32,000 nt of DNA from Mycobacterium leprae TN (GTDB lineage: Bacteria > Actinomycetota > Actinomycetes > Mycobacteriales > Mycobacteriaceae), in the NCBI RefSeq assembly GCF_000195855.1, contig NC_002677.1:600001-632000 (forward strand), written 5' to 3'. Positions 2,356 to 22,120 of the stretch are shown here, one piece after another. The position numbers and the translations under genes are program-made. The notes beneath the pieces were generated by a model. The model saw nothing but the letters and a program-made list of their open reading frames with translations. It was not told the DNA's origin and searched no databases. Every line of letters starts with the position of its first letter. Within the stretch, counting starts at the first letter, position 1.

Positions 2356-3914
2356 CGAACTGGTCTATTGCGGTGATGGCGTTGAACAGCCCGCTCACCG
2401 CGTAATACGTTGCCTTGATTGACATCATATTGTGGACTGGTTGACCCGGATTGACGTAGAAAGCCGTAAGGATTGTTGCGGTCGTGAAACACCGACCGCG
2501 CCGCATCTGTATAAAATGTATATCGGCACCTTACGTCCGATAGCGGGATCAAATGTACCGACGTCGGTAAGCCACGCGGCACTAAGGGCACTAAGGTTGG
2601 AGGGAACAGCAGCGCGTTGCTGGGCAGCGGGGTACCGCCGCCGATAACCATGTGCACTGTGCCCTGGGTGGCGTCGATGAGGTCGACGGGAATTGGTGTT
2701 TCGGGTGTCTGCACCCAATATTACGCGCAATGGGTGTGAGCGTTCGGTAATGGTGTTCGTGGCTGCGCATCACGAGATCGACCTGGTGCTCGTCGAACAA
2801 CCTCAACCATTCCTCGCGAAATCCCGATGTCGACGCCATTGTTGCGGTCAGTGGTGGAGATTGTCGCCTGATGAATACAAACGACCACCCAGTCAAAATC
2901 TGGGTCGTTTCGTGCGTCGGCTAATTTGTCTGCAAGTTAGCGCTTTTGCTTTCCTACCTAGTATTTATGCACGTACGAATTGCGGCCATCTTGTAAGGCC
3001 ACGTCCTCGTTGTTCCGGCTGATTACCCGCACAGAGTTAGCGGTGAATGAGTAGCATAGAGCTGAGGACTAGATCCCAAATTGTTCACCGCAAAGTAGAT
3101 CTCATAGGAACCGTAACTAATTGGCCCATTGCCTAATTCGCTCTCGTGATTGCCGAAGGCCGGCATCAACGACAGTTAATGCGTCGAATCGGGTGGTGTT
3201 GTCAAGCCGGCCCAACCAAGTGCGGGTCCGGTCTTAGGCGAGTTCAGCCTAGCATAGGTCACCGTGCACGAGGTTGAACAGCAGGGCGATGCGTTTGATC
3301 GCGATCGTGGTATCGTCGGCTGTGGGCGAGCCAATGTTGTTGATTAATGCTATGTATTATTGGTCAACTGGCTTAACTCCGGAGTAGATCGACCACTGAA
3401 ACTGTATTAATAGCAGCCATTTTTCGTCATTCTGGTGCGGTGTGCACGGTCCTTAGCCCGGGCTCCATACCTATGATGGACCGCGGCGTAGATGTAGTCG
3501 GTGTCCGCGGTCAGGTTCGTCAAGTGGGTGTGGTTGGTGCGGACCTGGGTGTGGACTGTGCGTCTCGGTATGTTCGGGTTTATGTTGGCACGGTTTTACC
3601 GAGCCCAGATGTCGGCGTGTCGAACATGACTCGCGGTCTGCGGATGGCGTCGGTGGTGTGCCATGACACGATAACCTCGGTTGCGGCGTTTTTGCCAAAT
3701 TGCAGATGCAGACCACCCACCGGCGGTGCGCTATGTCGGTCCGACCGGGGTATGTATCCGTGACCGCGTGGGTGAGATCACAACAGTGCAGCTCTGCCCG
3801 CACCAATGATCGCCGCTACCGTACTCGCCGTTAACCTGCGGCGGCTGACGGCGGTTCTGATGTTCGGGTGGTCGGGTCAGGACCATCGTCCCGTTGCGGA
3901 TCTCGCTTATTCAT
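2300..3914 (-). pseudogene. Purple-acid-phosphatase-like metallophosphoesterase relic (Rv2577-like), many frameshifts and stops
   Basis: Minus-strand motifs occur in the expected order. From ATG at 3914: MNKRDPQRDD..; VHLQFGKNAATEVIVSWHT; AFGNHESELGNGP (3100-3180); VRVISRNNEDVALQDG; DWVVVCIHQATIST; VDLVMRSHEHHY; GTVHMVIGGG; and YVNPGQPVHNMMSIKATYYAVSG. Total length is about 1.6 kb, as expected for a ~530-aa protein. The 3' boundary is approximate. Confidence 0.8.
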
Positions 3915-4012
3915 GCTTCATACCCCGAGCTGGGCGACCGCTGATGTATCTGGCCGGTGAACGTCTGCCGGGACTGCTACGCGGGTAACTGAATCCGGTA
4001 AGTGTTTTTGTC

Positions 4013-4390
4013 ATGATGAACCTGCGAAAAATGATCAGCGCGGTCGCGATCACAACGTTTGGGGTGGTGCCGGAAGTCGCAACGACTACACCGACGGCAC
4101 CCGCAGACCCAGCTGGTCTATACTAACAAAATAATCACCAGTGATCTGATCGTCAATATCCACTACATGAACACCGATCCGCCCAGTTAAGCGGTCTTTA
4201 ACGCTGACTCAGCGAAATATCTGAACACTGTGTCCACCCCAGATCTCCGGTGTTCAGCCACTGGGCTATATCGCAATGTGGCAATCCGAACTAGTGGACG
4301 ATTGTTACCGTTCAGCGGGTGGGCTGCGGATCAATGTTCAATTGTATCGTGAGATCGCGGTGGACGGTCAGGTGGTGGTATCATAAAACG
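4013..4390 (+). pseudogene. Relic of a small exported or membrane protein (signal-peptide-like N-terminus, premature stop at 4124)
   Basis: ATG 4013 gives MMNLRKMISAVAITTFGVVPEVATTTPTAPADPAGLY, then TAA. Downstream frames are broken. The position matches a small gene between the phosphoesterase and the Zn-peptidase in M. tuberculosis (from memory). Confidence 0.3.
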
Positions 4391-8610: not shown

Positions 8611-9041
8611 ATGACAGAATAGTTTCCGGACGCTGAAACGGTAAAGGAGTTCAACAAAACCATCGTCGACGAGTTCCAGGACAACGGCGGCAAGGTCGGT
8701 GGGCAATTCGCCAATTCAAACTTGCGGCTGCTAACAACGACCAGCGCTAAATCTGGCCAACGCCGGGCTTCGCCACTGACCTATTTTTCCGCAGCGACGG
8801 CAAGCTGATCACCATCGTGTCCTTTGTCGGTGCCTCGGTTAGTCCGGCTTGGGTGCACAACCTGGAGGCCAACCCTACGGGAACACGTCGAGATCGGGGT
8901 TCGAAGCGTTCGACGTGATGGCGCGTGAATTGTCTTCTACTGAGCGCGAACAGATCTTCCCTAAAGTTCCCTCCCTTCTCCGCAACGGGACAAGTCAAAA
9001 CCAGCCGGGTGATCCCGCTGTTAGAGCTGCACCTGATCTAG
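8611..9041 (+). pseudogene. Deazaflavin (F420)-dependent nitroreductase family (DDN-like) relic
   Basis: The sequence reads MTE* followed by VKEFNKTIVDEFQDNGGKVGGQFANSNLRLLTTTSAKSGQRRASPLTYF. After frameshifts it reads SPAWVHNLEANP, then FEAFDVMARELSSTEREQIFPKV, then RVIPLLELH. In-frame stops are at codon 4 and later. Confidence 0.8.
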
Positions 9042-9046
9042 TAGCA

Positions 9047-9500
9047 GGTAATAGACCGAGTCCCCGTGTTTGTCAAAAACTCATGTTCTCAAGGCAATTA
9101 GGAGTTTTCACTGAGTAGGACTCCAACTCTGCGCGTCCCTTAGCGTCCAGCATCGCCAGTTGCGGCCGTTTGACGTTGGAAGCCACACCCACCACCCAGC
9201 ATGTGTTCACCGGAACCGATCTCAGCGGCGCCGTGCACTACCAGACCGCCGCTCTCAATCACTAGTTGGGAAGCCAGCTTTCGCAACTCTGGGTTGTACT
9301 TCAGTATGTTTTCCGATGTACGGGGATCCTTCTCTAGACACCAACAGTACCACTGGTTCGCTGTCCACTATCAGGAGTCAACCCGAATGTTGCATGATCT
9401 TTGGTCTTGCGTGGGGTCGCTGCGTGAAGATCGTATTTCGCGATTTGTCCCCGACAGACCACACCTGGCATGTCGGGCCACGTATACTGAATTTCTGAAT
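9047..9500 (-). pseudogene. MaoC-like (R)-hydratase/dehydratase relic
   Basis: Minus-strand fragments are VGDKSRNTIFTQ, SPYIGKHTEVQPRVAKAGFPTSD (compare the hot-dog motif GD.NP.H.D.E.A..AGF...I), then GSGEHMLGGGCGFQRQTAATGDA, then a C-terminal beta-strand-like segment. There are several stops and frameshifts. The family call rests on short motifs only. Confidence 0.4.
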
Positions 9501-9681
9501 ACTATACTCCCACTGTTTGTAATGGAATGATAGGTATACTCATTTGGCGATGGTGTCTATCTCGAATAGATCTAATTTGTAGTAATTTATGTGTAATTCA
9601 CCTCTTAATATTGTGCTATAATTATAGCTTATAAGCCCGGTAAACGTGTGTGGGTTCATTAATTACTAAAGTAGAATTAAT

Positions 9682-9975
9682 ATGTCTTTGTGAGTGTAGA
9701 GGTTGGGGTGTTACAAGTAAGTTTCTATGTAAAGTGTGAAAATTTTTGATTGTGAGGTTGTTGCCGATAACAAGGTGGCTCTAGCAACAACCGCCATGAA
9801 TCCTTCTGCTATCAATTCGGAATCACAAAGGGTGACACCGTATCTGGTTCAGTTATGCGCAGCAGGATCGAAAGACTATCCTTAGGCGGTGGTATGCGGT
9901 CCTAGAAGCCGATAACGCCAAGATTTTGAGCTAAAAGAATTGTATATAGTCTTTACGAGCCGGAAGGAATAACTA
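9682..9975 (+). pseudogene. PE-family relic, heavily decayed and AT-shifted
   Basis: From ATG 9682 the sequence reads MSL*V*.. then VVADNKVALATTAM...YLVQLCAAGSKDYP*AVV. This is compatible with PE consensus MSFV...AAADEVSAAIAAL...YQALSAQAAAFH.QFV with internal deletions. It lies directly upstream of a clear PPE relic, the classical PE-PPE pairing. Confidence 0.45.
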
Positions 9976-9983
9976 ACAAAAAG

Positions 9984-10560
9984 ATGTATTCTGAACCGTT
10001 ACTACCAAAGGTAAACTTGGGCAACATGTATACCGGCTTGGATTCTTACTCGCTGATACTCGCTGCCCAGGTGTGGAAGGCGGTGGGTTAGGAGTTGAGG
10101 GCCATTAGATTGTTGTCAATCGAATTCTACTCCATATCGCTTTGGACCACTGGTTGGGTCGCCGCGGCGACACAGAAAACTGATGCGGTCAAGCTATTTC
10201 TGAGGTGGCTGAATGACCTCGGTGAGGCAGTTCTCTGAGATTGAGGAACAAACCTAATAGCTATAGTGCCAGATTTTCGCGATGCACATACCGAGATGGT
10301 GTATTCGGGGTGGATCGCGATTCACCGCGCCTGGAGAGCGAATATGGTCAATAACAGCGGGTTCGTACTATAGTATAGAAATAGAGATCGCGGCACGTGG
10401 CCGGGAGTATGCAAGGTGCTGGGTTGAAGACGGTTAGGCGATGAATAAGATATAGGCGTAGGTTGTCGTTATACTGTTGTCAAGGTTGCCTTCGTTGAAG
10501 TAGCCGCCGTCGATCACCAACAACACCGGGTTGATCCAGCTGATGCCACTTCCCGCAGAA
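9984..10560 (+). pseudogene. PPE-family N-terminal domain relic
   Basis: ATG 9984 is preceded by ggaagga. The translation reads MYSEPLLPKVNLGNMYTGLDSYSLILAAQVWKAVG*ELRAI...SISLWTTGWVAAATQKTDAVKLFLRWLNDLGEAV..*..PDFRDAHTEMVYSGWIAIHRAWRANMVNNSGF. After a frameshift it reads IAAREYARCWVEDG.AM. This is collinear with the PPE consensus (LPPEVNS.RMY.GPGS..ML.AA.AW..LA.EL ... W.G.A...M..AA.PY..WL ... AYE.A...TV.P..IA.NR..L..L..TN.FG ... EA.Y.EMWAQDA.AM). The 3' limit is uncertain. Confidence 0.8.
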
Positions 10561-10699
10561 CCGCTTAGTTCGGTTATTCGTTGTGGGGTGGTGTTGGGCC
10601 GATACGATTTGCAGAGTTGTGTGCGTCTAGTCCATGGAAAGATTTTGTTGTAGTTAGGTGAGGTAGTCGTTGAGCTTGCAATGCTGGTCGGGGTCGTTT

Positions 10700-12430
10700 A
10701 GGTGTTTAGGTGATGTTTTGTTGTGTTGGAGGCACAAACTTTACATCGATGCCGGTGTGACTGGGGGGTGTGCCGCGCCCGTGGGGGTCGACCGTATGTC
10801 TGTGGCCGTATTGAAGTATCTGCTGGTGGTCAGAGGTTGACGTTACTCCAAGGGCGGTCACCTCGCTTGTGTTGGGCGTGGGCTGCATGAGGAACAACTC
10901 GTCATCGGTAGATAACGGCGCTGGCATGGCCTAGGAGCCCGTCGAGCGAAAATGCTGGCGACGGTGGTGTGCTCGGGCAGCAAGAAGCGTTGCAGGGCCA
11001 GTGGGAGGCGAGGGCTAGGGGAGTGGCATTAGTAGGCAGCGGTTGCTAGCCAGAACAGCAGATAGGTGCCGGTGTCATCATATTGGGGTGAACTCTAGTT
11101 CGTCAACAATGATCACCTCAGCGCGTAGCAGGATCTCGAGTTCTTGACTCAGGCGAGTGTTGTCGATTGCGGTTACGCTGCCCAGGAACGCTTGCGCACC
11201 CTCGTCGAGGGAGCAGCACTGGCTGTTTCCACTGTGGGGTTTCGGGCGCGGACCGCGGCTGGGTATAGTTCGGGGCGCATCGTAGTGCTTGTCGAGAATT
11301 GACATCTTCCCCGAGTGCGACGAGTTCGTGTTCGGCCACGGTCGCCTTGGTGGCCGGCTTCACCACATAGTAGCGCCTCGTGGTCGATGACGATGGCCAC
11401 GTTTGCCCCGATCAATCGGGGTTGGTACCGGAGTAGCGGGCCGAGCTGTACTGGATGTGGGAGAGTAGGTCGACCTTACGGGTGATCGACGCCGCGCCGA
11501 CCTCGAATCACAACGACGGCAGCGCCGCCAGCAGCTTGCGCTCGGTCGCAAGGCGCTCATTATTTATAGGAATTTATTAGGTGACGATCTACCGAGTGTA
11601 TCGCGGCGTTGACCTCCGTTCACCACGCCGCAGCGGCAGCGTTGCCCTCAGAGATGCTCACCGGTTGTATGGTGACCTTGGCCTAGGTCAAAGAAGCTGC
11701 ATCAATAAGTCGGACTGCGGAGTAACCGCACAGGTGCTACACAATGTCCCGCGATGTCGGATAGTTGGCCTGGCACCAATCCGGGCGAAACCCGTAATAG
11801 GTGGCAAATCAGACATATTGGGTTGTGGAGACGACTATGCTGGCGACTACCCGGCCCTTCAAACAGCTTATCCGATCGGCCAGTACGTGCGTCGGGACCC
11901 TGCCGATCGCGGCGAGCACCTCGGCGGTCATCGCCAGCATGGTGGTAGCATTTTGGTCGGAGAAAAACGCACGATTCTCCACCACGAGAACGCCAGCACC
12001 GCGTAGAACATAAACAACCCTGGTGCAGGTTCGGCCCAGTCGATTAGCAGATACTCACTAGCTGTCCGCGCAGCCTGACTGCGATCCGCACTATTGTCCT
12101 TACACCACAAAGTTTTCTGCTAGGAGACTAGGCGGCGGAAATTGCACGCCAAACCTTTATAGCCGGTAGCCTGGGTGATCGGCAACGGCCACTTGGTTGC
12201 GATCCAGCACGCCGATTTCGCTACCCGATCAGCGACCAAATCGCGCACGTGGTCGAGATGGCGTGGTAGCCGGTGCATGCCGAGGCTGCCCGCCGGCTTA
12301 GGCGCGTTCCACCACACGCTTGACGGTCTTGTGCTTGGTTCGGCACAACTCTGCGGTCTCACGATCGGTTCCGGCTTCCTGACAGGTAGAATGATGTTCA
12401 TTTGCTCCCTCACAGACTCAGACAAAACTG
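10700..12430 (-). mobile_element. IS21-family element relic (istA-istB), frameshifted and internally deleted
   Basis: The minus strand shows these segments in order. IstA HTH region: QEAGTDRETAELCRTKHKTVKRVVERA...LLP..GY.G..RNFRR. Catalytic core: EYLLIDWAEPAPGLFMFYAVLAFSW, and LADRISCLKGRVVASIVVSTTQYV*FATYYGFRPDWCQANYP. IstA C-terminus: VVKPATKATVAEHELVALGEDVN...PRPKPHSGNSQCCSLDEGAQAFLGSVTAIDNTRLSQELEILL. IstB Walker-B onward: VIIVDELEFTPI..DDTGTYLLFWLATAAY...FLLPEHTTVAS. The ends are approximate and no terminal repeats were identified. Confidence 0.7.
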
Positions 12431-12454
12431 AAGTGAGCGAACAACGCGACCTGC

Positions 12455-13730
12455 CACGAAGCTCTCGATCGCAGTTGTCAGGTGGAGGGACTGGTCTAGA
12501 TATTTTAGCCGAGTTCTTTGAGCTGGCGCACCAACCGAGCCTTCTGATCATCGGTATCATTGTACTGTGTAGTAGTCGATGCCCAAGTCGGTGTAGGCAA
12601 CTTGGGCGTGGATGATCGCCAGAATGGTGTGTTCGATCGCGGTAGCAGCTTTTATTTCAGCTTGCCTTGCCGAATTGGCGGTGCAGACTCCGGAATCGCG
12701 TGCTCAGACGCGTACGGGTTATGAGAGACCGCCCACGTCCCCGCAATGGCAACGCTGCAGAACTGCAGCGTTGCCATTGCGGGGACGTCGTCTTCCTCCT
12801 TTTGCCGATGGACTCGTTGTTACCCGGACATAATCCGATCCACGAAGCTAAATGATCGGCGGTTGGGAACCACGACATATTTACCTCGATTTCGGCGATG
12901 ACCGTCTGGGTTGCCAGCTTACCAATTCCAGGAGTCGTTATCAGAGGATCCCGTTGACGAGCGAACGGGGGGTGACTGTCGAATCTATGCGCACTTTCAA
13001 CCGGTTGATCATCAAGTTGAAACCATCAATGTGGGCCAGTTGCAGTCTGGCCAGCGGAGTATTCTGATCCGCCATCAGAAAATCCAAAGTCTTTGTTAGA
13101 TAAGGGATTTTCTTTAGTATCAGCCAGCAGAACAAATCGGCCAGCACCGCGGGATCGCGCTCCCCTCGATATCAACGTAGTGATCCTTGTCCTGCCCGAC
13201 ATGCTGAGGTAATAGGAGGCTACAGAATCCGGTTCAAGGCCGTCTTCTTAGAATACTTTGTGCAGCCTCAGGGTTTCCTGAGTATGCTCCTCGGTTAACT
13301 TCCGGTGGTATCGGGTAAATTCCCGGTACCGCCGCGATCTCCGCCGACGTGATGAAACTCCCGCGCAGCAGACCCACCTCGTGCAACTGTGCCAGCCAGA
13401 CCGCATCAGTGGCGTCGGTCTTGCGAAATGGAACATTCTTGACGTGGTTAGCTTTGCACAGCAGGATTTCAAATCCATTGACTTCAGCCAAGGCATGAAA
13501 CACAGGCCTTCAGTACACTTCCGTTTCCTCCATTCTACGTGTGTAACTTGTCCGGCGTGAAGTCATTCCGTTATCTATATAAACTCCCCGTAGAACATCA
13601 CGACCTTACTCACTTTCTGCGCACGTGGTTCGTCGCGCCGCTACGATCGTCCGGTACGTGGACTGCTACCGCCACTTGTCGCGTATTTACATTGATTCCG
13701 GCAACCTTCGAGAACACGATCTCCATCATC
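12455..13730 (-). mobile_element. IS110-family transposase relic
   Basis: The minus strand from ATG 13730 reads MMEIVFSKVAGINVNTRQVAVAVHV. It continues with GFEILLCKANHVKNVPFRKTDATDAVWLAQLHEVGLLRGSFI, LADLFCWLILKKIPYLTKTLDFLMADQNTPLARLQLAHIDGFNLMINRL, FPTADHLASWIGLCPGNNESIGKRRK, and AIVAIEHTILAIIHAQVAYTDLGIDYY. There are multiple frameshifts and stops. Confidence 0.8.
12735..12788. repeat. Perfect 54-bp palindrome (26-nt arms, 2-nt spacer) inside the IS110 relic
   Basis: acgtccccgcaatggcaacgctgcag (12735-12760), aa, ctgcagcgttgccattgcggggacgt (12763-12788). The arms are exact reverse complements, checked base by base. Confidence 0.95.
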
Positions 13731-14590
13731 AACGCTTCCTTCGCTCACCACTAAGGTGTGTCACTCGCGGAGCGTACGAAACATTCGAAACCCAGGCATG
13801 TGCTCACAGCAGCAATCCGGAGTACCTCCCGTCGTGCACTTCCAGCGTCACTCTAAAATCAATACAAACTTTTAAAATGCCAATATGAGCCGACAGCAGC
13901 GGGTGACGTACCACCAAGTTTCAACCACCCGCGAGTGCTCAGCCAGGGGTATAATCATTCCTCACCTGGTCGGTTCGGGTGACTGTTGGCGCAAATCACT
14001 GTCACCGTCCCGGCTGCGAGCTTCCTGATCGACATGACAAGCAAGGAAACGAGACTTCATTACCTAGCCACCAGTGGGAACATCCATCTGGTCGTTCATG
14101 GGGACTTTCACATGGCTACGGCCACAGTTCATTTGTGCAACAAGATACGCCTTCACGAAGATCCTTGATGACTCTATGCTGCAATGTATTTCGTAGGCAA
14201 ATTGATGTAATTTTTCCTATCCTTCTGTAGGAAATTCTAGCACAGCAGAAGCGACAAGAATAGCGGCAATCGTTACCAAACGAAAGGAGAAAATAGGTTG
14301 TTTAAATTTGAATTTGGCGGATTTCAGTGTGCTAACATTGGAGGTGAACGCCGCGCTTATATTGACTTGCCGGTAACGTAGTGCAGGTTCGGGGAAAATT
14401 ATTCATTGATAGCGGTCAATGAGGCTGTATACTGGGAGTACTGTGCAAATCATACCTGGGTGATGAAACAATCTGTGCCAAAGAGGTGTCGTTGGTGACT
14501 TCGTTTATGGAGCCGCTGCAGGTCGTTAACCAGGTTAAGTCGGTGCAGAAGGCGTCGTGCTTAGTGCAATAGCAGCTAGTCAAGTGGTGG

Positions 14591-14652
14591 CGCTCATTCC
14601 TTAAGAAGCGCTCATTCCTTAAGAAGCTAGTCGAAGACTAGCTTCTTAAGGA
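14591..14652. repeat. 18-bp exact tandem duplication (cgctcattccttaagaag x2, 14591-14626) overlapping a 17-bp perfect hairpin (14616-14632 / 14636-14652, loop gaa)
   Basis: Read directly from the sequence. The motif tccttaagaag therefore occurs twice in direct and once in inverted orientation within 62 bp. Confidence 0.95.
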
Positions 14653-14999
14653 GCCTGTGCAGCCAGGTTTCAGTGATCAACTCTCCGAGATCGGGGATGT
14701 CGATCTAGGAGAGTTTGACCAACATCTCTGGATAGCCGTCGAAATGAGGGTGGTGAAATATACTCCTGGGTCGTCGGCGATTTAAAGCGAACTTGACACC
14801 CGTATCAGAAGACCCGGATATCGATAATGTTGCCGCTCGGTGGGTCGGTTCAGTGTGCTGCCAGAGCGTCACGGTCAGATTGCGCAGGGGTCGTTCCCAC
14901 GCATCGGTTTCTTACTGACTCGCCAAATGTGCGGTGGACTGCTTGGTGGTGCGTGGCAACCGCCCCACGATGCTTTGCGACGTCGTTCCACGTGGCCAC
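14627..14999 (-). pseudogene. YjbR/MmcQ-like small protein relic
   Basis: The minus strand from GTG 14999 reads (M)ATWNDVAKH...VRNRCVGTTPAQSDRDALAAH*. After frameshifts it reads VKFALNRRRPRSIFHHPHFDGYPEMLVKLS*IDIPDLGELITETWLHRLLKKLVFD*. This matches my recollection of the family pattern (TW.DV...F.V..K.F...PHFDGYP.VLV.L..ID...L.EL...AW..RAPK.L). Confidence 0.5.
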
Positions 15000-15090
15000 G
15001 TGTCGACTATGGTGAAGCTTGGTGTCGGTTGTTGGCTGAGCCCACGCGAGGGACAAGCGTGATGTAATCGGCCTTGTTGGACCACCGGGC

Positions 15091-17497
15091 TTGTCTCGTG
15101 GAGTAGGTCGGTATCGAAGATTCGGGAGGTTGTTTTTGTCAGGAAGTAGCGCGTTGCCCTCTGACGACTTGTGTGATTCGCCGCCAGCCGCGCGTCTGGT
15201 CGGTGGCCTCGCGATCCTGACCAGTTGTTGGCCGATTATCGCGCCATGTGGGCGCAGCAGTTGTTGTTTGACGTGCGTGATGGCCGGTCTGGTTGCACCG
15301 TCCTGGTGCCAGTGTGCCCACACTCTGGCACCAGGAGGCACTGCCGTTAATGCTTACTCTGGAAGACTGGGCCACATTGGAATCCAGTGTCGTGCAACCT
15401 AGCCGGTTGCTCGATGCGGTGCTCACTGACCTGTATGGGCCGCGTCGCTGCGTCACCAGCGGAGTGTTTCCGGCTGTGCTGCTGTTCGGCCACCCTGGCT
15501 ACGTCCGGGCGGTCAATGCGATCGAAGTACCGGGCCGTAATCAGTTTTTTTATACATGGCTGTGCCATCAGCCGGAACCGGTCCGGGAGCTTTACTGTCA
15601 ATCTGGATTGGCCGCAGGTACTGGCGGGAGCCGGGTATGCGCTGGCCGACCGTCGGGTCGTCGCGCACGCTGTTCCTGACCTGTACGAACGGGTCGGGTT
15701 GCCCCCGGCATCACCGTTCGCGCAGACGTTGCTGCCGGCGCTGATCGATGCCACACCCGAGGCCTTCGAAGATCCGGTGGTTGTGGTGCCCACCCCCGGC
15801 ATCCGCTTCGAAATAGAATTCTACCAGGTCTATCTAGTATTTGTGTTGGGTTTCCCGCTGGTGGGAAGTGCTGACTTAGTGGTCCGCGATGGCAAGCTGT
15901 GGATGCGGTCGTTGAGCACCCTGAAACCGGGTCGACATGGTGTTGCACCGGGTCAATGCCGACTACGCCGATCAGCTGGATTTGCTGTCCGATTTCAGGC
16001 CGAGCGTGGTGGGTTTGGTCGAAGTGTTGTAACGCGGGGCGCGTGACTGTGGTCAACGCTCTGGGCAGCGGTATCCTGGAAAGCGCAGGGATCATGCGGT
16101 TATTGTCCGAGTTGTCGCTGTAGCTGCTTGGCGGAGCCCCGCTGCTGCTGGTGGCCGTCCGTGTCGAGGACGCGCCCTGGCAGTGGGTTGGTCAGGAGCT
16201 GTCACATTTTTCCTCTGCGTCCACTGACCACATACCTAGGAGGGTTGAATGTCGCCGGTGTTGGGGTGCGGTTGTTCATCGTCTCACAATGCGGTGGTTA
16301 CGCACCGATGATCGGTGGCCTGGGGTACACCCTTGCCCCGGGTAACGTCTCATGCAATCTTAATACCGTTGCGGCTAAGGATATCCGGTTCAGGACGCCG
16401 ACCCGGGACCGCTCCGGGGTCACCATTCCGTCGGTTGACTTGGCGGCGGTAAAGGCTGGCGGCACTCGCGGCATCAGCTCGCCAAGGTTGCTGTTCGACA
16501 TGTTTTGGGTTGGGCATTGCGCCGAGCTCGCTGAGGTCATGGCTCGATTACTGGTTTTCACCCGCGAGCGGTACCATGAATTCCATCACCGCGAGGACAC
16601 TGACGGTAGCGAATCCGTGCTCGCTGCACTCGGGCAGGTCATCGGCATCGATATTGCTGACGCGCAAGCGACACTTTGGTGACTGACCTATGTCTCGGAG
16701 CGTTCAAGATCGCTGACGCAGTCGGTCGCATGGCTTGGACTGGTTGAGTGGGTGGTGCGGGATCAAATGTCGAAGGACATATGGATGGTGCTCGGCAGTG
16801 TCGAGTGGTCACTGACGCAGCTGTCTGCATCGGTCCCGGTGACGTCTGGGCAGTCCCTCGAACCGGGCAAACTGGCCAATCCAGCGAGTCATCCGAGCTC
16901 GCTGACGACATCAAATTCGCCCCGGTGCACGCCACGACGTTGGCGTTGTCCCAGGTGGCGGCCGAATCGGTGGTGCGTGATGTCGACTTGACCATGACCA
17001 ATATCGGCAAACGGATCGAACGCAGGGAGTGGCTGACCTCGCTGTTGGAGGCCATCTCATCGAAGGACCGCAGCCGTGCTGCCGAGCAAACGATCATTGA
17101 GTCCACGCAGATGGCCTGCGAATCGTCGGTGATCTACCTGCGGCACAACCTTCGTGCTGTGAATGTTGCTACGGTTGCCGAGCTGGTACTTTTCGAGGTC
17201 GAGAACCCGAGGTTGCTGGTCTACCCGCTGGAGCGGCTGCGGACCGACTTGTGGCAGTTACCTGGAGCTTCGGGCTCGTCGCGGGCTGAACGGTTGGCCG
17301 ACGACATAAGTATCCGGTTGCGCCGGCTCGATCCGGCAGATTTCGATGTGGTCACTGCCAACGGGGAGCGCGCCAAGTTGGCGGGGTTGTTGACCGGGAT
17401 ACACAATGGGCTGCTTGACCCGACCGACGTTACCACCGCCACCCAGCTCTCGCTGCCCGGCGAAATGCAGCCAATGTGGGTACCAGACCAGCGTTGG
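15091..17497 (+). pseudogene. Fused circularly-permuted ATP-grasp + alpha-E domain protein relic (Rv2567-like), multiple frameshifts, stops and an internal deletion
   Basis: ATP-grasp fragments: WHQEALPLMLTLEDWATLESSVVQPSRLLDAVLTDLYGPRRCVTSGVFPAVLLFGHPGYVRA (15293 frame); AGAGYALADRRVVAHAVPDLYERVGLPPASPFAQTLLPALIDATPEAFEDPVVVVPTPG...GFPLVGSADLVVRDGKLWMRSLSTLK (15387 frame); VTVVNALGSGILESAGIMR (15899 frame); PWQWVGQELSHFSSAS (16151 frame). GGYAPMIGGLGYTLAPG...AAKDI and the alpha-E start SPRLLFDMFWVGHCAELAEVMARLLVFTRERYH lie in one uninterrupted frame (16128..16682), which indicates a fusion protein. The alpha-E tail runs in the 16748 frame up to about 17497. Confidence 0.8.
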
Positions 17498-17500
17498 GTG

Positions 17501-18442
17501 ATGCTATCATGTCACATGAAGTGGACGCAGCTGACGTCGCGGCGGTACCGAGTTAGTCACCGTACTGAATACCGCTATTCCGACGTTGTCACCAGTTCCT
17601 ATGGCCGTGGGTTCCTCACGCCATGCGATTCCTTGCGCCAGCGCTGTGTCGACCATCGGTTGCATATCGTGCCTGTTCCCGCTGACAGCTCGATAAGCCG
17701 CGACAGCTACGGCAACATCAGCTCCTACTTCCACGTCACCGAGCCGCACTGCACCCTGACTGTCACCAGTGAATCCATCGTCGACGTGTACCCGACTCCA
17801 CCCGAGCTGTTCACCAGTGGGCCGGCGTCGGCACCGTGGGAGGCGGCCCGGCCGACCGGGAGGCGGGGAGTGCTGGCCACTGAATTCACCCTGGATCTGA
17901 ATCCGCCGGAGATCACTGACGAAGTGCGGCAGTACGCTGCGCCAAGTTTCGAGCCGCAGCGTCCACTGATCGAGGTTCTGCGCGACCTCACCACACGGAT
18001 CTACGCCGATTTCACTTATCGGTCGGGCTCTACGACGATTTCCACCGGAGTTAACGAGGTTCTGTTGGCCCGAGAAGGGGTATGTCAAGATTTCGCCCGG
18101 TTGGCGATTGCCTGCTTGCGTGCCAACGGTCTGGCGGCTAGCTATGTATCCGGGTACTTGGCCACCGATCCTCCACCGGGGAAGGATCGTATGGTTGGTA
18201 TCGATGTGACCCATGCCTGGGCCTCGGTCTGGACGCCGCAACAGTCTGGCCAATGCGAGTGGTTGGGACTGGATCCCACCAATGACCAGCTGGTCGACGA
18301 GCGATACATTGTCGTCGGCCAGGGCCGCGACTACGTGAACGTGCCACCGCTGCGCGGCATCATCTACACTAACTCTGAGAACAGTGTGATCGACGTTGCC
18401 GTTGACGTAGCGCCCTGCGAAGGCGACGCACTGTATGCTTGA
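17501..18442 (+). CDS. Transglutaminase-like cysteine protease family protein (Bact_transglu_N + transglutaminase core), apparently intact
   Basis: This is the 3' part of ORF 16748..18442. The N-terminal domain reads RYRVSHRTEYRYSDVVTSSYGRGFLTP. The core reads REGVCQDFARLAIACLRANGLAASYVSGYL...GIDVTHAWASVW...WLGLDPTND. Triad codons are Cys 18083-18085, His 18212-18214 and Asp 18272-18274. The start is uncertain (GTG 17498, ATG 17501 or ATG 17516); 17501 gives 313 aa. Confidence 0.8.
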   Translation: MLSCHMKWTQLTSRRYRVSHRTEYRYSDVVTSSYGRGFLTPCDSLRQRCVDHRLHIVPVPADSSISRDSYGNISSYFHVTEPHCTLTVTSESIVDVYPTPPELFTSGPASAPWEAARPTGRRGVLATEFTLDLNPPEITDEVRQYAAPSFEPQRPLIEVLRDLTTRIYADFTYRSGSTTISTGVNEVLLAREGVCQDFARLAIACLRANGLAASYVSGYLATDPPPGKDRMVGIDVTHAWASVWTPQQSGQCEWLGLDPTNDQLVDERYIVVGQGRDYVNVPPLRGIIYTNSENSVIDVAVDVAPCEGDALYA

Positions 18443-19477
18443 CTTCCGATGTTCTAACTGCGGTCAGCGCCTGACGTTCGAGAACTTCGTGTGTTTGTCC
18501 TACGGCAGCGCGCTGGGGTTTTCGCTGAAGGATATGGCGCTGCTGGTGATTGGTGACGCCGAGCACGTCGGTGCCATTGTTGCCGGAGATTATCAACCGT
18601 GTGCCAAATCTTCATCTGGACCAATGCAATTGGTTGGTCCCCGTTGATCAACCTGGCGGGCTGTGCACGTCATGCGTGTTGGACTCAACAACGGCAGCAC
18701 GATGCGTACACACACCATTGACCTGGCTGAGTTCGTCCGAGTCTAGGAGGCTAAGCGGCGGCTGATCGCGGAATTCAACGAACTAAAGCTGCCGATTGTC
18801 GAGCGTGACCAGAATCCCGACTTTGGACTGGCGTTCATCTGTTGTCCAGCGAGCACTAGAAGGTAGTCACCGAGCATGACGGCGGCATAATCGCCCTAGA
18901 GTTAACCGAGGGTGATGATGTTCACCGCAAGCAGTTGCGGGTTGAAATGAACGAGTCATACCCGCACCCTGCTCGGGCACTTCCGCCACGGGATCGGGAG
19001 TGACTACATTTATTAATTAAACCAGTTGATCACCAATTCGGGTGCATACTTGGACTATTGCCGCGGATTGTTCGGTGATCTCGACGCCAACTACCCCGAG
19101 TTGTTAGCTTGTGGCGCCCTGCCCGCTGACTGGTAGGAATGCTTTGTGTCATCGTATGATGCCATGCACGCTGCTCAGGATTATGCTGAGATGTTTGTTC
19201 ACAATACTGTACATACGCGATGTCCTGGACATCTTTAGTGTGGTGCGGTTTGACGTCGGCGTCAGTAACCTTTGAGCGAAGTGTGTTCGGCTTCAGTGCT
19301 TTTCCCACCATCATCGACATGTGGCTGCCGTTGTCCTGGTTGCTGAACATGGTCAACCGTTCGATGGGCCATGACGACCTATACTCGTTCGTGTTGATGT
19401 CCGCCGTTTTGGACAAGATGCAGTTCACTCACGCCGTCGTCGACGATGTGACTGCCAACCTAAACAGCAGCACATGA
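18435..19477 (+). pseudogene. Zinc-ribbon / putative zinc metallopeptidase relic (Rv2568c-like)
   Basis: ATG 18435 overlaps the upstream stop (ATGCTTGA). The zinc ribbon reads MLDFRCSNCGQRLTFENFVCLSYGSALGF. After frameshifts and stops come CANLHLDQCNWLVP...GLCTSC, KRRLIAEFNELKLPIV, LLGHFRHGIGSDY, LFGDLDANYPELL...LPADW*ECFVSSYDAMHAAQDYAEMFVH. An in-frame stop at 19475-19477 closes the last frame. Confidence 0.75.
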
Positions 19478-19743
19478 GGTACGTGGCCGTGGTTAGGCGA
19501 ATTGGGACCCGGCGGCAGTGGACCGTCACTGGGGGTGAGGGAGAAGCTCCGTAACCAGACGGTGGTGGATAGTCGTAAAGGTTCTGGTTGCCGCTCTGCT
19601 AGTTGGCCGGGTTAGCTAGATAGTTCGGGGTTGGCTTATTACTTTGATTCGTTTGCTAGTTTGTTGTGGGGACCCGTTGGGTACCCGAATCATCGGGGTT
19701 TACCGTGACTGACTTGTCTGTCCTTCGTGGTATTTCTAATGTT

Positions 19744-21087
19744 GTGTCCGACAGTCTGTTTGATTTGCCTGGCGCGCCGCAGCCGACCGACTACGGCCTG
19801 GGTGGCTCGACCGGGGTCCCGCTGGCGGTGCGGATGCGTCCGGCATCGCTGGACGAGCTGGTTGGACAGGGTCACTTGTTGGCGCCGGGATCGCCGCTGC
19901 GCCGCCTTGTCGAGGGCTCGGGTGTGGTGTCGGCTATTCTCCATGGCCCGCCGGGATGCGGTAAGACGACCCTGGCAGCGCTGATCTCGCAGGCGACCGG
20001 GCACCGGTTCGAGGCACTGTCGGCGTTGTCGGCGGGTGTCAAAGACGTTCGAGCTGTTTTGAAGATTGCACGTAGTGCGTTGCTCTCGGGGAAGCGGACT
20101 GTGCTGTTTATCGACGAAGTGCACCGATTCTCCAAGACTCAGCAGGACGCCCTGCTTTCCGCGGTGGAGAACCGGGTGGTGTTGCTGGTCGCGGCGACCA
20201 CCGAGAACCCGTCGTTTTCAGTGGTGGCGCCGCTACTGTCTCGATCGCTGATCCTTCAGTTGCGGCCGCTGAACGCTGACGACATCCGTGCCGTGGTGCA
20301 GCGGGCCGTCGATGATCCCCGCGGCCTGGGAGGACAGATCGCTGTGGCACCCGAGGCCGTCGACTTGTTAGTTCGGTTGGCCGCCGGCGACGCCCGACGG
20401 GTTTTGACCGCATTGGAGGTGGCCGCCGAAGCCGTCCAAACCGGTGACGAGCTGACGGTCGCGACCATTGAACAATCCTTGGACAACGCTGCAGTGCGCT
20501 ACGACCGGGACGGTGATCAGCATTATGATATCGTCAGCGCCTTCATCAAATCGGTGCGTGGCTCTGACGTGGATGCTGCGCTGCACTATCTGGCGCGCAT
20601 GTTGATTGCCGGGGAGGATCCACGATTCATCGCGCGCCGGCTGCTGATCCTGGCTAGCGAAGATATCGGCCTGGCCGACTCGACCGCGCTTCCGCTTGCG
20701 GTCGCTGCCGCGCAGACTGTGCAGCTAATAGGCATGCCCGAAGCCCAGCTGGCGCTGGCACATGCCACCATTCATTTGGCTACTGCACCGAAATCGAACG
20801 CCGTCATGACCGCGCTGGGTTCCGCAATAGATGATATCAAAGCTGGTAAGGCCGGTTTGGTACCGGCTCACCTGCGCGACGGACATTACTCCGGTGCGGC
20901 GGCGCTGGGCAACGCCAAAGGCTACAAGTATTCCCATGATGACCCCGACGGTGTTGTTGCCCAACAGTATCCGCCGTATGAGCTGGTGGAAGTGGACTAC
21001 TATCGGCCTACCGGTCGTGGCGGTGAACGTGAGCTCGTCGGTCGACTAGACCGGCTGCGAGCGATAATCCGCGGCCGGCGAGGCTAG
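19744..21087 (+). CDS. rarA: Replication-associated recombination protein A (AAA+ ATPase, MgsA/RarA family)
   Basis: The ORF is intact. It has Walker [13 protein letters not shown], Walker B and sensor [18 protein letters not shown]...ATTENPSF, and the MgsA C-terminal domain [35 protein letters not shown] preferred GTG 19744 ([12 protein letters not shown]...). GTG 19666 (the ORF-track start) and GTG 19696 are alternatives. Confidence 0.93.
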
Positions 21088-21094
21088 CCGTTCG

Positions 21095-21830
21095 AGTAGT
21101 GTGCGGCTGGCTGCACGCTTGGCATCAGACCAGCTTGAGCACCCTCAAGTGCGCGATCGCCGGATCGAATTCGGCCACGTTGAGTACCTCGGCTTCCACA
21201 AATCCAGACCTGTTTGCTGCGCAACTTTAACTTGGTTGACCGGTCGCGGTTGCTGATCGCCATTGCGTTGATGCTGTCGAACGTCGAGCAGGACACCGTA
21301 CGCCGGAATACGGGATAGTCGACCATCAGGCTGGTGCTGCAGAACCCGTTGAGTTTTTCCAGTTCTGGAAGCACTCATGTCCGGTACGATCCATCGATCG
21401 GCTGCGCTGGTCGGATACCGTTTTGAGCCAGATAGCCCGTGTGCATGCGCCCTTGCACGAGCGGTGGTTACGCTGCCAGCAGAGCGATTCCCATTCTTCG
21501 ACCTGTGTGCTGCCGTTGAACATCTGCACAGCCTGATCGCGAATGCGCGCCAGCCGCCCATCGCCTGCACGTTCTCCCGAGTGAGCTGGTGGTGATGCAT
21601 CTGCCGGACTGTTCGGTCGACAAAAAGCGACACTCTGATACACCCGTCGATCTCCTGCAGGGCAGGTCATGACTACATCGCGAATGGAATGTGTGCAATT
21701 CCTATGTTGACCGACAGGGGTTGCGCCTGGATGGTGGTAGAGCGTGCGTACACGATCGACTCCAATCCTATCTCTGAGGCAGAGTCCCGGTAACGCTACC
21801 GGTTCATCAAGCTGCTTTCTTCCGACCACT
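21095..21830 (-). pseudogene. Possible class I SAM-dependent methyltransferase-like relic (identity uncertain)
   Basis: Three overlapping minus-strand ORF fragments (21084..21374, 21145..21633, 21326..21829) show that no single frame is open. The only family hints are short and weak: [12 protein letters not shown] (compare V.D.GCG.G), [14 protein letters not shown] (compare L.PGG.L.V), and a C-terminal [10 protein letters not shown]. Confidence 0.3.
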
Positions 21831-21930
21831 TAGGCGTGGCAATGCTGCTTGCGGGGCTTTCTCCCGGGTTGTGTATCGGATTGGCAGGTCGACAAGCCAC
21901 GCCCGTAGGCTGGGCTGCGTGCATACCGAT

Positions 21931-22120
21931 GTGCTGGATGTGAACACTGCGTGTCGTCGCATCGTGGATCTTACCGACGCGGTACGCGAATTCGGCCCGA
22001 CTCACAGCGATGACCGGTAGTCTTTGCAGTCGAAAGTGTCGTTAGACGGCCTTCTAATTGTCTGGCGAATAGGTTTTGGAATCGACCCCAAGCACGTTGC
22101 GATGTTGTCCCGGCAGAGCC
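21931..22120 (+). pseudogene. YjbQ/UPF0047-like N-terminal stub, truncated
   Basis: From GTG 21931 the sequence reads (M)LDVNTACRRIVDLTDAVREFGPTHSDDR* and then DGLLIVW. This resembles the start of YjbQ-family proteins (L.V.T..R....DIT..V..F......GLL.V). Only about 200 bp remain before alaS, so the C-terminal two thirds are missing. Confidence 0.4.

Follow-up and report, generated by a model that had tools for sequence, protein, structure and literature searches.

The transglutaminase-like gene ML0508 of Mycobacterium leprae has evolved under constraint beside decayed ATP-grasp/Alpha-E and peptidase partners

A 32,000-nucleotide stretch of the Mycobacterium leprae TN chromosome (NC_002677.1, positions 600,001 to 632,000), referred to here as the window, carries a cassette of three co-oriented genes on the plus strand: the relic of a fused, circularly permuted ATP-grasp and Alpha-E gene, presumably ML0507 (15154-17509); ML0508, a transglutaminase-like coding sequence of 313 amino acids (17501-18442); and ML0509, the pseudogene of a zinc-ribbon Peptidase_Mx gene (18435-19496). 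Our analysis revealed that ML0508 was kept under selection across a synonymous divergence of ~0.17. It is probably still functional, or ceased to be so only very recently, and would encode a transglutaminase-fold Cys-His-Asp hydrolase with a role independent of its cis partners. The original prediction made from this DNA had left two readings side by side, one in which the transglutaminase-like gene is simply the last of the three to decay and one in which it has a role of its own. Because constraint persisted long after both partners had died, the evidence favours the partner-independent role, although the retention is specific to the M. leprae lineage.

The 313-residue open reading frame (ORF) is identical to CAC30016.1/JK2ML_0508, which identifies the source of the window as M. 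leprae. ML0508, its family and the flanking pseudogenes are already annotated, and the cassette is not a new kind of system. A full-text literature search for 'ML0508' and for ML0605-ML0607 returned reagent catalogue numbers only.

Decay of the partner genes and selection on ML0508

The two partner genes were analyzed by Pfam searches of their fragments and by alignment to intact orthologues, including the 900-amino acid ATP-grasp/Alpha-E gene of M. haemophilum. Seven frameshifting indels and three in-frame stops were identified in the ATP-grasp/Alpha-E relic, together with a 138-bp (46-codon) deletion and a further deletion of ~184 bp near the 5' end; the original prediction had noted a loss of about 50 codons, which corresponds to the 138-bp deletion, and had overlooked the other. 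Matches to CP_ATPgrasp_1/2 lie in three different ORF fragments (15293-16123), and those to Alpha-E, Bact_transglu_N and Transglut_core all fall within one open frame (16748-18442). The peptidase relic carries at least 10 indels compared with the intact 350-amino acid orthologue; its Zn_ribbon_DZR_6 match is split across two frames (18435-18765) and its Peptidase_Mx match covers the C-terminal 49 residues (19220-19477). Inspection of the sequence showed that the ATG of this relic overlaps the ML0508 stop codon (ATGCTTGA). The predicted identity and orientation of the three genes, on which Pfam and the intact orthologues agree, were thereby borne out, as were the predicted breakage of the first and third genes and the overlap at the ML0508 stop. 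With no intact ATP-grasp and Alpha-E gene and no intact peptidase gene at the locus, the module is incomplete in M. leprae. No NCBIfam model matched any of the three cassette proteins.

Comparison with M. lepromatosis and M. uberis, whose loci were reached through their RarA proteins (the genome scan itself returned free-living mycobacteria only), separated shared from private lesions. Deletions of ~184 bp, 138 bp, 1 bp and 12 bp in the ATP-grasp/Alpha-E relic have identical boundaries in M. leprae and M. lepromatosis, and a 1-bp deletion, a 9-bp deletion and a +1 insertion in the peptidase relic are common to both species. Both partners had therefore already ceased to be functional genes by the time of the last ancestor that the two species share. 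The transglutaminase-like gene has no lesion common to them, and was therefore intact in that ancestor. The shared partner lesions are absent from M. uberis, with the +1 insertion in the peptidase gene as a possible exception. This insertion, at peptidase nucleotide 790, is carried by all three species; either it is recurrent, or the peptidase gene died first in a deeper ancestor. The ATP-grasp/Alpha-E relic accumulated 0.059 substitutions per site on the M. leprae branch compared with 0.088 on the M. lepromatosis branch, even though the synonymous divergence of intact genes is equal on both. C>T and G>A changes make up more of the M. leprae substitution spectrum, and part of the difference may stem from alignment errors around indels, of which M. 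lepromatosis has more.

Substitutions were polarised by parsimony using M. haemophilum and a close relative (loci L081/L082) as outgroups, with loci L001 and L002 added for the stem, and synonymous (S) and nonsynonymous (N) changes were counted by the Nei-Gojobori method. The resulting ratios (dN/dS; omega or pN/pS below) come from counting methods and not from codon-model likelihoods, and their neutral baseline under the strong C>T/G>A bias is ~0.7, not 1. On the M. leprae branch ML0508 gave an omega of 0.17 (19 S, 10 N), or 0.18 with codons flanking indels masked, the counts with and without masking being 16-19 S and 9-10 N; on the stem leading to the ancestor of M. leprae and M. lepromatosis it gave 0.15 (16 S, 7 N). 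Values for intact neighbours on the M. leprae branch were 0.11 for aspS, 0.15 for rarA, 0.11 for alaS, 0.12 for yceG, 0.16-0.22 for ruvX and 0.26-0.29 for aroE, and two intact neighbours on the stem gave 0.11 and 0.17. In contrast, the relics displayed ratios of 0.64-0.77 (ATP-grasp/Alpha-E), 0.41-0.44 (peptidase) and >1 (a 207-amino acid gene downstream of rarA) on the M. leprae branch, and the two partners already stood at 0.58 (ATP-grasp/Alpha-E) and 0.50 on the stem. Fisher tests on the M. leprae branch separated ML0508 from the pooled relics (P = 0.006) and not from the pooled intact genes (P = 0.49), in line with what the original prediction expected of a retained gene. Binomial tests rejected both strict neutrality (P = 6e-6) and the empirical neutral ratio (P = 3e-4). 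Between M. haemophilum and L081, a pair in which the cassette is intact, all three genes gave an omega of 0.13-0.15 (transglutaminase-like gene 0.15); ML0508 has therefore evolved at the rate of a fully functional gene. The M. lepromatosis copy gave 0.56-0.59, which differed from its intact neighbours (P = 5e-5) and did not differ from the relics (P = 0.16).

A similar result was obtained from the indels. Private indels accumulated in the neighbouring relics at ~3.8-5.5 per kb on the M. leprae branch, and the body of the transglutaminase-like gene (~900 nt) carries none compared with 3-5 expected (~3.4 in the test, P ~ 0.03). When substitutions and indels were combined in one joint likelihood, the best estimate for the share of the M. 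leprae branch that evolved neutrally was 0, with a 95% bound of 0.15-0.29. This purifying selection persisted after the death of the partners, and ML0508 was therefore probably useful without them in cis.

The ML0508 protein and its relatives

ML0508 matched Bact_transglu_N over residues 16-95 (77.2 bits, above the Pfam cut-off) and Transglut_core (PF01841) over residues 149-259 (55.7 bits, cut-off 23). The protein is 92% identical to the intact orthologues P0002 and P0003, and its orthologues as a group are 302-326 amino acids long and 78-92% identical. The triad codons named in the original prediction are retained, all on the plus strand, and specify Cys195 (18083-18085), the predicted catalytic nucleophile, in the motif EGVCQDFA, His238 (18212-18214) in THAW and Asp258 (18272-18274) in LDPTN. 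Their columns are invariant across 50 orthologues and align with the G-C, HAW and DPT motifs of two solved proteins, 3ISR (a putative cysteine protease of Cytophaga; phmmer E = 5e-8) and 6G49 (the TgpA domain of Pseudomonas; E = 2e-7). The likeness to these proteins is local (33-36 bits): the core Cys, His and Asp motifs are common to all three, whereas the N-terminal domains differ, and TgpA is a membrane/periplasmic protein whereas the ML0508 sequence displays no hydrophobic N-terminus. The most likely activity would be a stand-alone one in which Cys195 hydrolyses peptide or isopeptide/amide bonds. An AlphaFold2 model built from a shallow alignment (50 sequences, all at least 78% identical) had a mean pLDDT of 51, with the core below 50, and was not used.

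The organization of the locus was compared across mycobacteria. Intact co-oriented cassettes were identified between aspS and rarA in M. haemophilum (L083-L085) and a close relative (L081/L082), encoding an ATP-grasp and Alpha-E protein of 900/906 amino acids, a transglutaminase-like protein of 311/314 amino acids and a zinc-ribbon Peptidase_Mx protein of 350 amino acids. A divergent YjbR-like gene upstream and the peptidase gene directly downstream, within the aspS-rarA interval, are features of 80 mycobacterial loci and of the window. Approximately 60 of the 80 have the order YjbR-like gene (minus strand), transglutaminase-like gene (plus), peptidase gene (plus) and then a convergent pair, which encodes a 1106-amino acid 'amidoligase' protein with Bact_transglu_N, Transglut_core and DUF2126 and an 895-amino acid ATP-grasp and Alpha-E protein; this agrees with the M. 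tuberculosis order Rv2570 / Rv2569c / Rv2568c / Rv2567 / Rv2566. In the M. haemophilum/M. leprae clade and in two metagenome-assembled genomes (MAGs), the ATP-grasp and Alpha-E gene instead lies directly upstream of the transglutaminase-like gene and there is no DUF2126 gene. The constant core of the locus is the pair of transglutaminase-like and peptidase genes.

Two MAGs look like independent cases of this pair without a ligase in cis. In L004 an in-frame collapse has left only 108 codons of the upstream ligase gene (3770-4093; residues 1-68 joined to 861-900), and in L006 (9451-12695) no ATP-grasp/Alpha-E gene was detected within the 20-kb locus; the transglutaminase-like and peptidase genes are intact in both. 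These cases, together with the convergent ligase of most loci, indicate that the transglutaminase-like gene is not tightly bound to a cis ligase anywhere in the genus. The ATP-grasp/Alpha-E versions of the two architectures are only 67% identical, compared with ~85% for the transglutaminase-like proteins (L005 11963-17934, minus strand, versus L083 7302-12001 and window 15154-19496); this suggests paralogy or replacement and not simple relocation.

The M. tuberculosis counterpart of ML0508 is Rv2569c. The two genes occupy the same position in the aspS-rarA interval, between a YjbR-like gene (Rv2570/ML0506) and a Peptidase_Mx gene (Rv2568c/ML0509), and published mappings pair ML0506 with Rv2570 and ML0509 with Rv2568c (PMC6211624, supplement 5). 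They are of about the same length, and the published reverse cloning primer encodes a C-terminus of ...DALHA* for Rv2569c compared with ...DALYA* in ML0508. Orthology is assigned because of this position, the mappings of the flanking genes and the five C-terminal residues encoded by the primer. M. tuberculosis retains an intact peptidase partner along with intact Rv2567 (the ligase) and Rv2566, whereas in M. leprae ML0508 stands alone with a remodelled N-terminus. The original prediction stated that no function had been established experimentally, which is outdated for this orthologue: the parts of PMC11081392 (PLoS Pathog 2024) considered here report protease activity for Rv2569c and describe a knockout defective in epithelial transmigration and mouse lung colonisation. 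The same parts class the protein as a serine protease, inhibited by PMSF and AEBSF and not by E-64 or NEM; in them the label derives from inhibitor evidence alone, with no catalytic-residue mutant. The protease and virulence role of Rv2569c is thus published but debatable.

The cassette can also be compared with the operons of CP-ATP-grasp, Alpha-E and transglutaminase genes, with or without Anbu, that Iyer et al. 2009 predicted to be a peptide synthesis/modification system, as reviewed in PMC5666114. CP_ATPgrasp, Alpha-E and a transglutaminase-like protein containing Bact_transglu_N occur in both, along with a peptidase. The M. leprae cassette departs from those operons in that a single fused gene encoded ATP-grasp and Alpha-E, a zinc-ribbon Peptidase_Mx protein takes the place of Anbu, and the transglutaminase-like member is the sole survivor. 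Gene sets of this kind occur widely among bacteria, and no substrate has been established for them since the 2009 prediction; a 2026 preprint still lists Rv2567 and Rv2411c as 'uncharacterised ATP-grasp' candidates. M. leprae is in effect a natural knockout of two of the three components in which the third was kept under selection, an argument that the transglutaminase-like enzyme does something useful by itself. The loose and variable coupling to the ligase in other mycobacteria and the reported Rv2569c phenotype agree with this.

Transcript data are available from published work. In the S5 file of PMC7365477 (protein-coding sheet), the abundance of ML0508 is 54,087 in freshly collected nude-mouse footpad bacilli and 74,515 in bacilli kept for 48 h in axenic medium; comparators in the same file are aceA (54,101), ahpC (52,109), dnaK (50,834) and groES (57,330). 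We regard this abundance as supportive only.

Evidence against a functional ML0508 and alternative explanations

Several observations weigh against a functional, partner-independent ML0508, and they concern its 5' end, its replacements at conserved positions, its loss in relatives, the published enzymology and the reading of its transcript level. An alignment of M. leprae, M. lepromatosis, M. haemophilum and L081 DNA, with translations, revealed that the 5' end (17498-17540, plus strand) has been remodelled. The ancestral start codon is lost (ATG to ATC, 17506-17508), the upstream Alpha-E stop is lost (TGA to TCA, 17507-17509), the ancestral overlap ATGA now reads ATCA, and the coupling of ML0508 to the upstream gene is destroyed. 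A scan for promoters and terminators near the start identified nothing, with sites no more numerous than in shuffled sequence, and the start region has no convincing Shine-Dalgarno sequence. A private 8-bp deletion lies 35 nt into the gene (junction ~17539/17540). Because 8 is 2 modulo 3, the gene body now lies in the old Alpha-E frame, in a single ORF of 564 codons (16748-18442, plus strand; ORF list and Pfam) that joins an Alpha-E C-terminal remnant to the transglutaminase-like gene. The original prediction that this gene carries no lesion therefore holds for its body, which has no indel and no stop from codon 14 to the end, and fails for its start.

The lesion is confined to a hypervariable 5' tail and can be bypassed by in-frame ATG codons. 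The candidate starts are GTG 17498, ATG 17501 and ATG 17516. In the ancestor, the annotated ATG 17501 specified the Met near the Alpha-E C-terminus ('...QRRVMP*'), and ATG 17516 was then out of frame and was brought into frame by the 8-bp deletion; the two sit 5 nt before and 10 nt after the old start. New sequence is limited to the first 13 residues of ML0508, ahead of the Bact_transglu_N match, and the replaced tail (residues ~2-12) is hypervariable in sequence and length among 49 orthologues. Four substitutions lie within 25 nt around the old start (17505-17525), beside the deletion; one of them creates an out-of-frame ATG (17509-17511) that opens a dead-end ORF of 16 codons. This cluster may mark either an adaptive change in how translation starts or a local loss of constraint.

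At eight positions that are 98-100% conserved across the other 49 orthologues, ML0508 carries a replacement. The stem accounts for five of them (R42C, A124V, I232V, F252C and R274Q) and the M. leprae branch for three (A236V, which lies two positions ahead of His238, A279V and D280N). Most of the eight are conservative and of the GC-to-AT type, and omega is not lifted above the functional range; weak drift in a small population could explain them, as could adaptation to the absence of the partners.

The M. lepromatosis gene is split over three frames by four private frameshifts (-2, +1, +1 and +2). Assembly error was ruled out as their source, as two complete genomes and three assemblies from independent read sets are 100% identical over 2.7 kb. 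The M. uberis gene is a pseudogene with 10 indels. The role of ML0508 is therefore dispensable for close obligate-pathogen relatives; the gene is not generally needed by leprosy-type bacilli, and its retention is specific to M. leprae. The original prediction had tied special retention to an undisrupted ORF in M. lepromatosis, and in that form the idea does not stand, given four frameshifts in all five assemblies and the disruption in M. uberis. All three cassette genes of M. uberis (L092, 4322-8968) are pseudogenes with private indels, and decay there was therefore independent of that in the leprosy bacilli. The lineage-specific retention of ML0508 fits the ordinary pattern of reductive evolution, in which M. 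leprae and M. lepromatosis have most pseudogenes in common and only a minority occur in just one of the two. What departs from the pattern is that its two operon partners died before the species split, which makes the locus an unusually clean natural experiment on partner-independence. The serine-protease label given to Rv2569c fits poorly with an invariant Cys-His-Asp triad, and the biochemistry is accordingly uncertain. M. leprae pseudogenes are also transcribed, so RNA abundance is no proof of function.

We propose a history that accommodates these observations. The transglutaminase-like gene would ancestrally have been translationally coupled to the upstream ATP-grasp/Alpha-E ligase-type gene and the downstream zinc-ribbon metallopeptidase gene. 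Both partners were inactivated in the common ancestor of M. leprae and M. lepromatosis, and ordinary purifying selection acted on the transglutaminase-like gene along the stem and for all, or almost all, of the M. leprae branch. The 8-bp deletion would later have removed the original start region, and ML0508 may have survived by using an in-frame start of the former Alpha-E frame (ATG 17501 or ATG 17516) that replaces only the hypervariable tail.

An alternative is that the 8-bp deletion and the loss of the start silenced translation and that ML0508 is a young pseudogene. We consider this unlikely. It would account for a 5' lesion that is private to M. leprae, for the loss of the ATGA coupling, for the lack of promoter or Shine-Dalgarno-like signals by the start and for three M. 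leprae-branch replacements at otherwise invariant positions; the joint likelihood permits up to ~15-29% of the branch to be neutral, and loss of the gene has in fact occurred in M. lepromatosis and M. uberis. However, the maximum-likelihood neutral fraction is 0, the nearby in-frame ATGs exchange only a hypervariable tail, and the transcript is abundant. Far less credible is that the ORF has been neutral since the partners died and has merely escaped a hit. Some gene must be the last to go and this ORF is short (0.94 kb), but a pN/pS of 0.15 on the stem and 0.17-0.18 on the M. leprae branch, compared with 0.4-0.8 for the partners on the same branches, speaks strongly against chance survival, as do the binomial tests and the ~0.03 chance of escaping indels. 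The M. lepromatosis copy, with its four frameshifts and a pN/pS of 0.56-0.59, displays the pattern that a neutral copy has.

The independence of ML0508 might also extend to its cis partners only, if it served a ligase-dependent pathway whose ligase is encoded elsewhere, for example in a paralogous system of the Rv2411c-Rv2409c type. The possible M. leprae counterparts of that system, ML0605-ML0607, are annotated and transcribed 'conserved hypothetical' coding sequences, and in most mycobacteria the ligase of the present locus is a separate, convergent transcription unit, so the transglutaminase-like gene is not strictly cis-dependent. Nothing in our data ties ML0508 to another ligase, however; paralogous systems carry a transglutaminase-like gene of their own, and the dedicated metallopeptidase partner is dead as well. 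We judge such a pathway improbable. The real product could instead be a 564-amino acid fusion of the Alpha-E remnant and the transglutaminase-like protein, as the frame is open from 16748, gene callers gave products of 534-564 amino acids and the early cosmid annotation MLCB1259.25 one of 553. The 564-amino acid product was called, unchanged, on 258 M. leprae contigs; the M. leprae variants P0001, P0128 and P0129 differ in their last 5-7 residues only, at contig ends, and were treated as assembly artefacts. But the remnant is the C-terminal third of its domain, severed by a 1-bp deletion shared with M. lepromatosis, and the pN/pS of this part (codons 716-900) is relic-like at 0.62 (10 S, 17 N) compared with 0.17-0.18 for the transglutaminase part. 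On this ground the fusion was rejected as the functional product and is a very remote candidate.

A functional ML0508 with a role of its own therefore remains the preferred reading. By analogy with Rv2569c, a more specific and only tentative suggestion is a stand-alone hydrolase working without ligase or metallopeptidase, for example as a cell-envelope or host-directed protease of the kind claimed for that protein, which M. leprae kept and M. lepromatosis and M. uberis lost. If so, ML0508 would count among the few enzymes that set the two leprosy agents apart, and would offer a natural way into the function of a widespread 'peptide-modification' gene set. The state of the gene is in any case a concrete difference in gene content between M. 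leprae and M. lepromatosis.

Neighbouring features of the window

The cassette is bordered upstream by the relic of the divergent YjbR-like gene (14636-15007, minus strand; ML0506, the orthologue of Rv2570), which was identified by tblastn with the intact L081 protein at 45% identity. It lies within an ORF-poor stretch of ~6.5 kb (8611-15100) that contains no ORF longer than 146 amino acids and in which GC content falls to 0.46. A relic of an F420H2-dependent quinone reductase gene is present at 8611-9041, inside this stretch; the PE/PPE genes that fill the corresponding interval in M. haemophilum and L081 were undetectable there by tblastn. Rfam and tRNA scans of the window gave no matches.

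Downstream of the cassette, the 473-amino acid ORF at 19666-21087 is M. leprae RarA (CAC30018.1). It is annotated from GTG 19666, and the orthologues and an alternative RefSeq model begin 22 codons later (451 amino acids), so the true start is uncertain. Two more relics follow at 21125-22009, the 207-amino acid gene (minus strand) and yjbQ. Both have decayed in M. leprae and M. lepromatosis, and some of their indels are common to the two species, for example a 13-bp deletion in the 207-amino acid gene.

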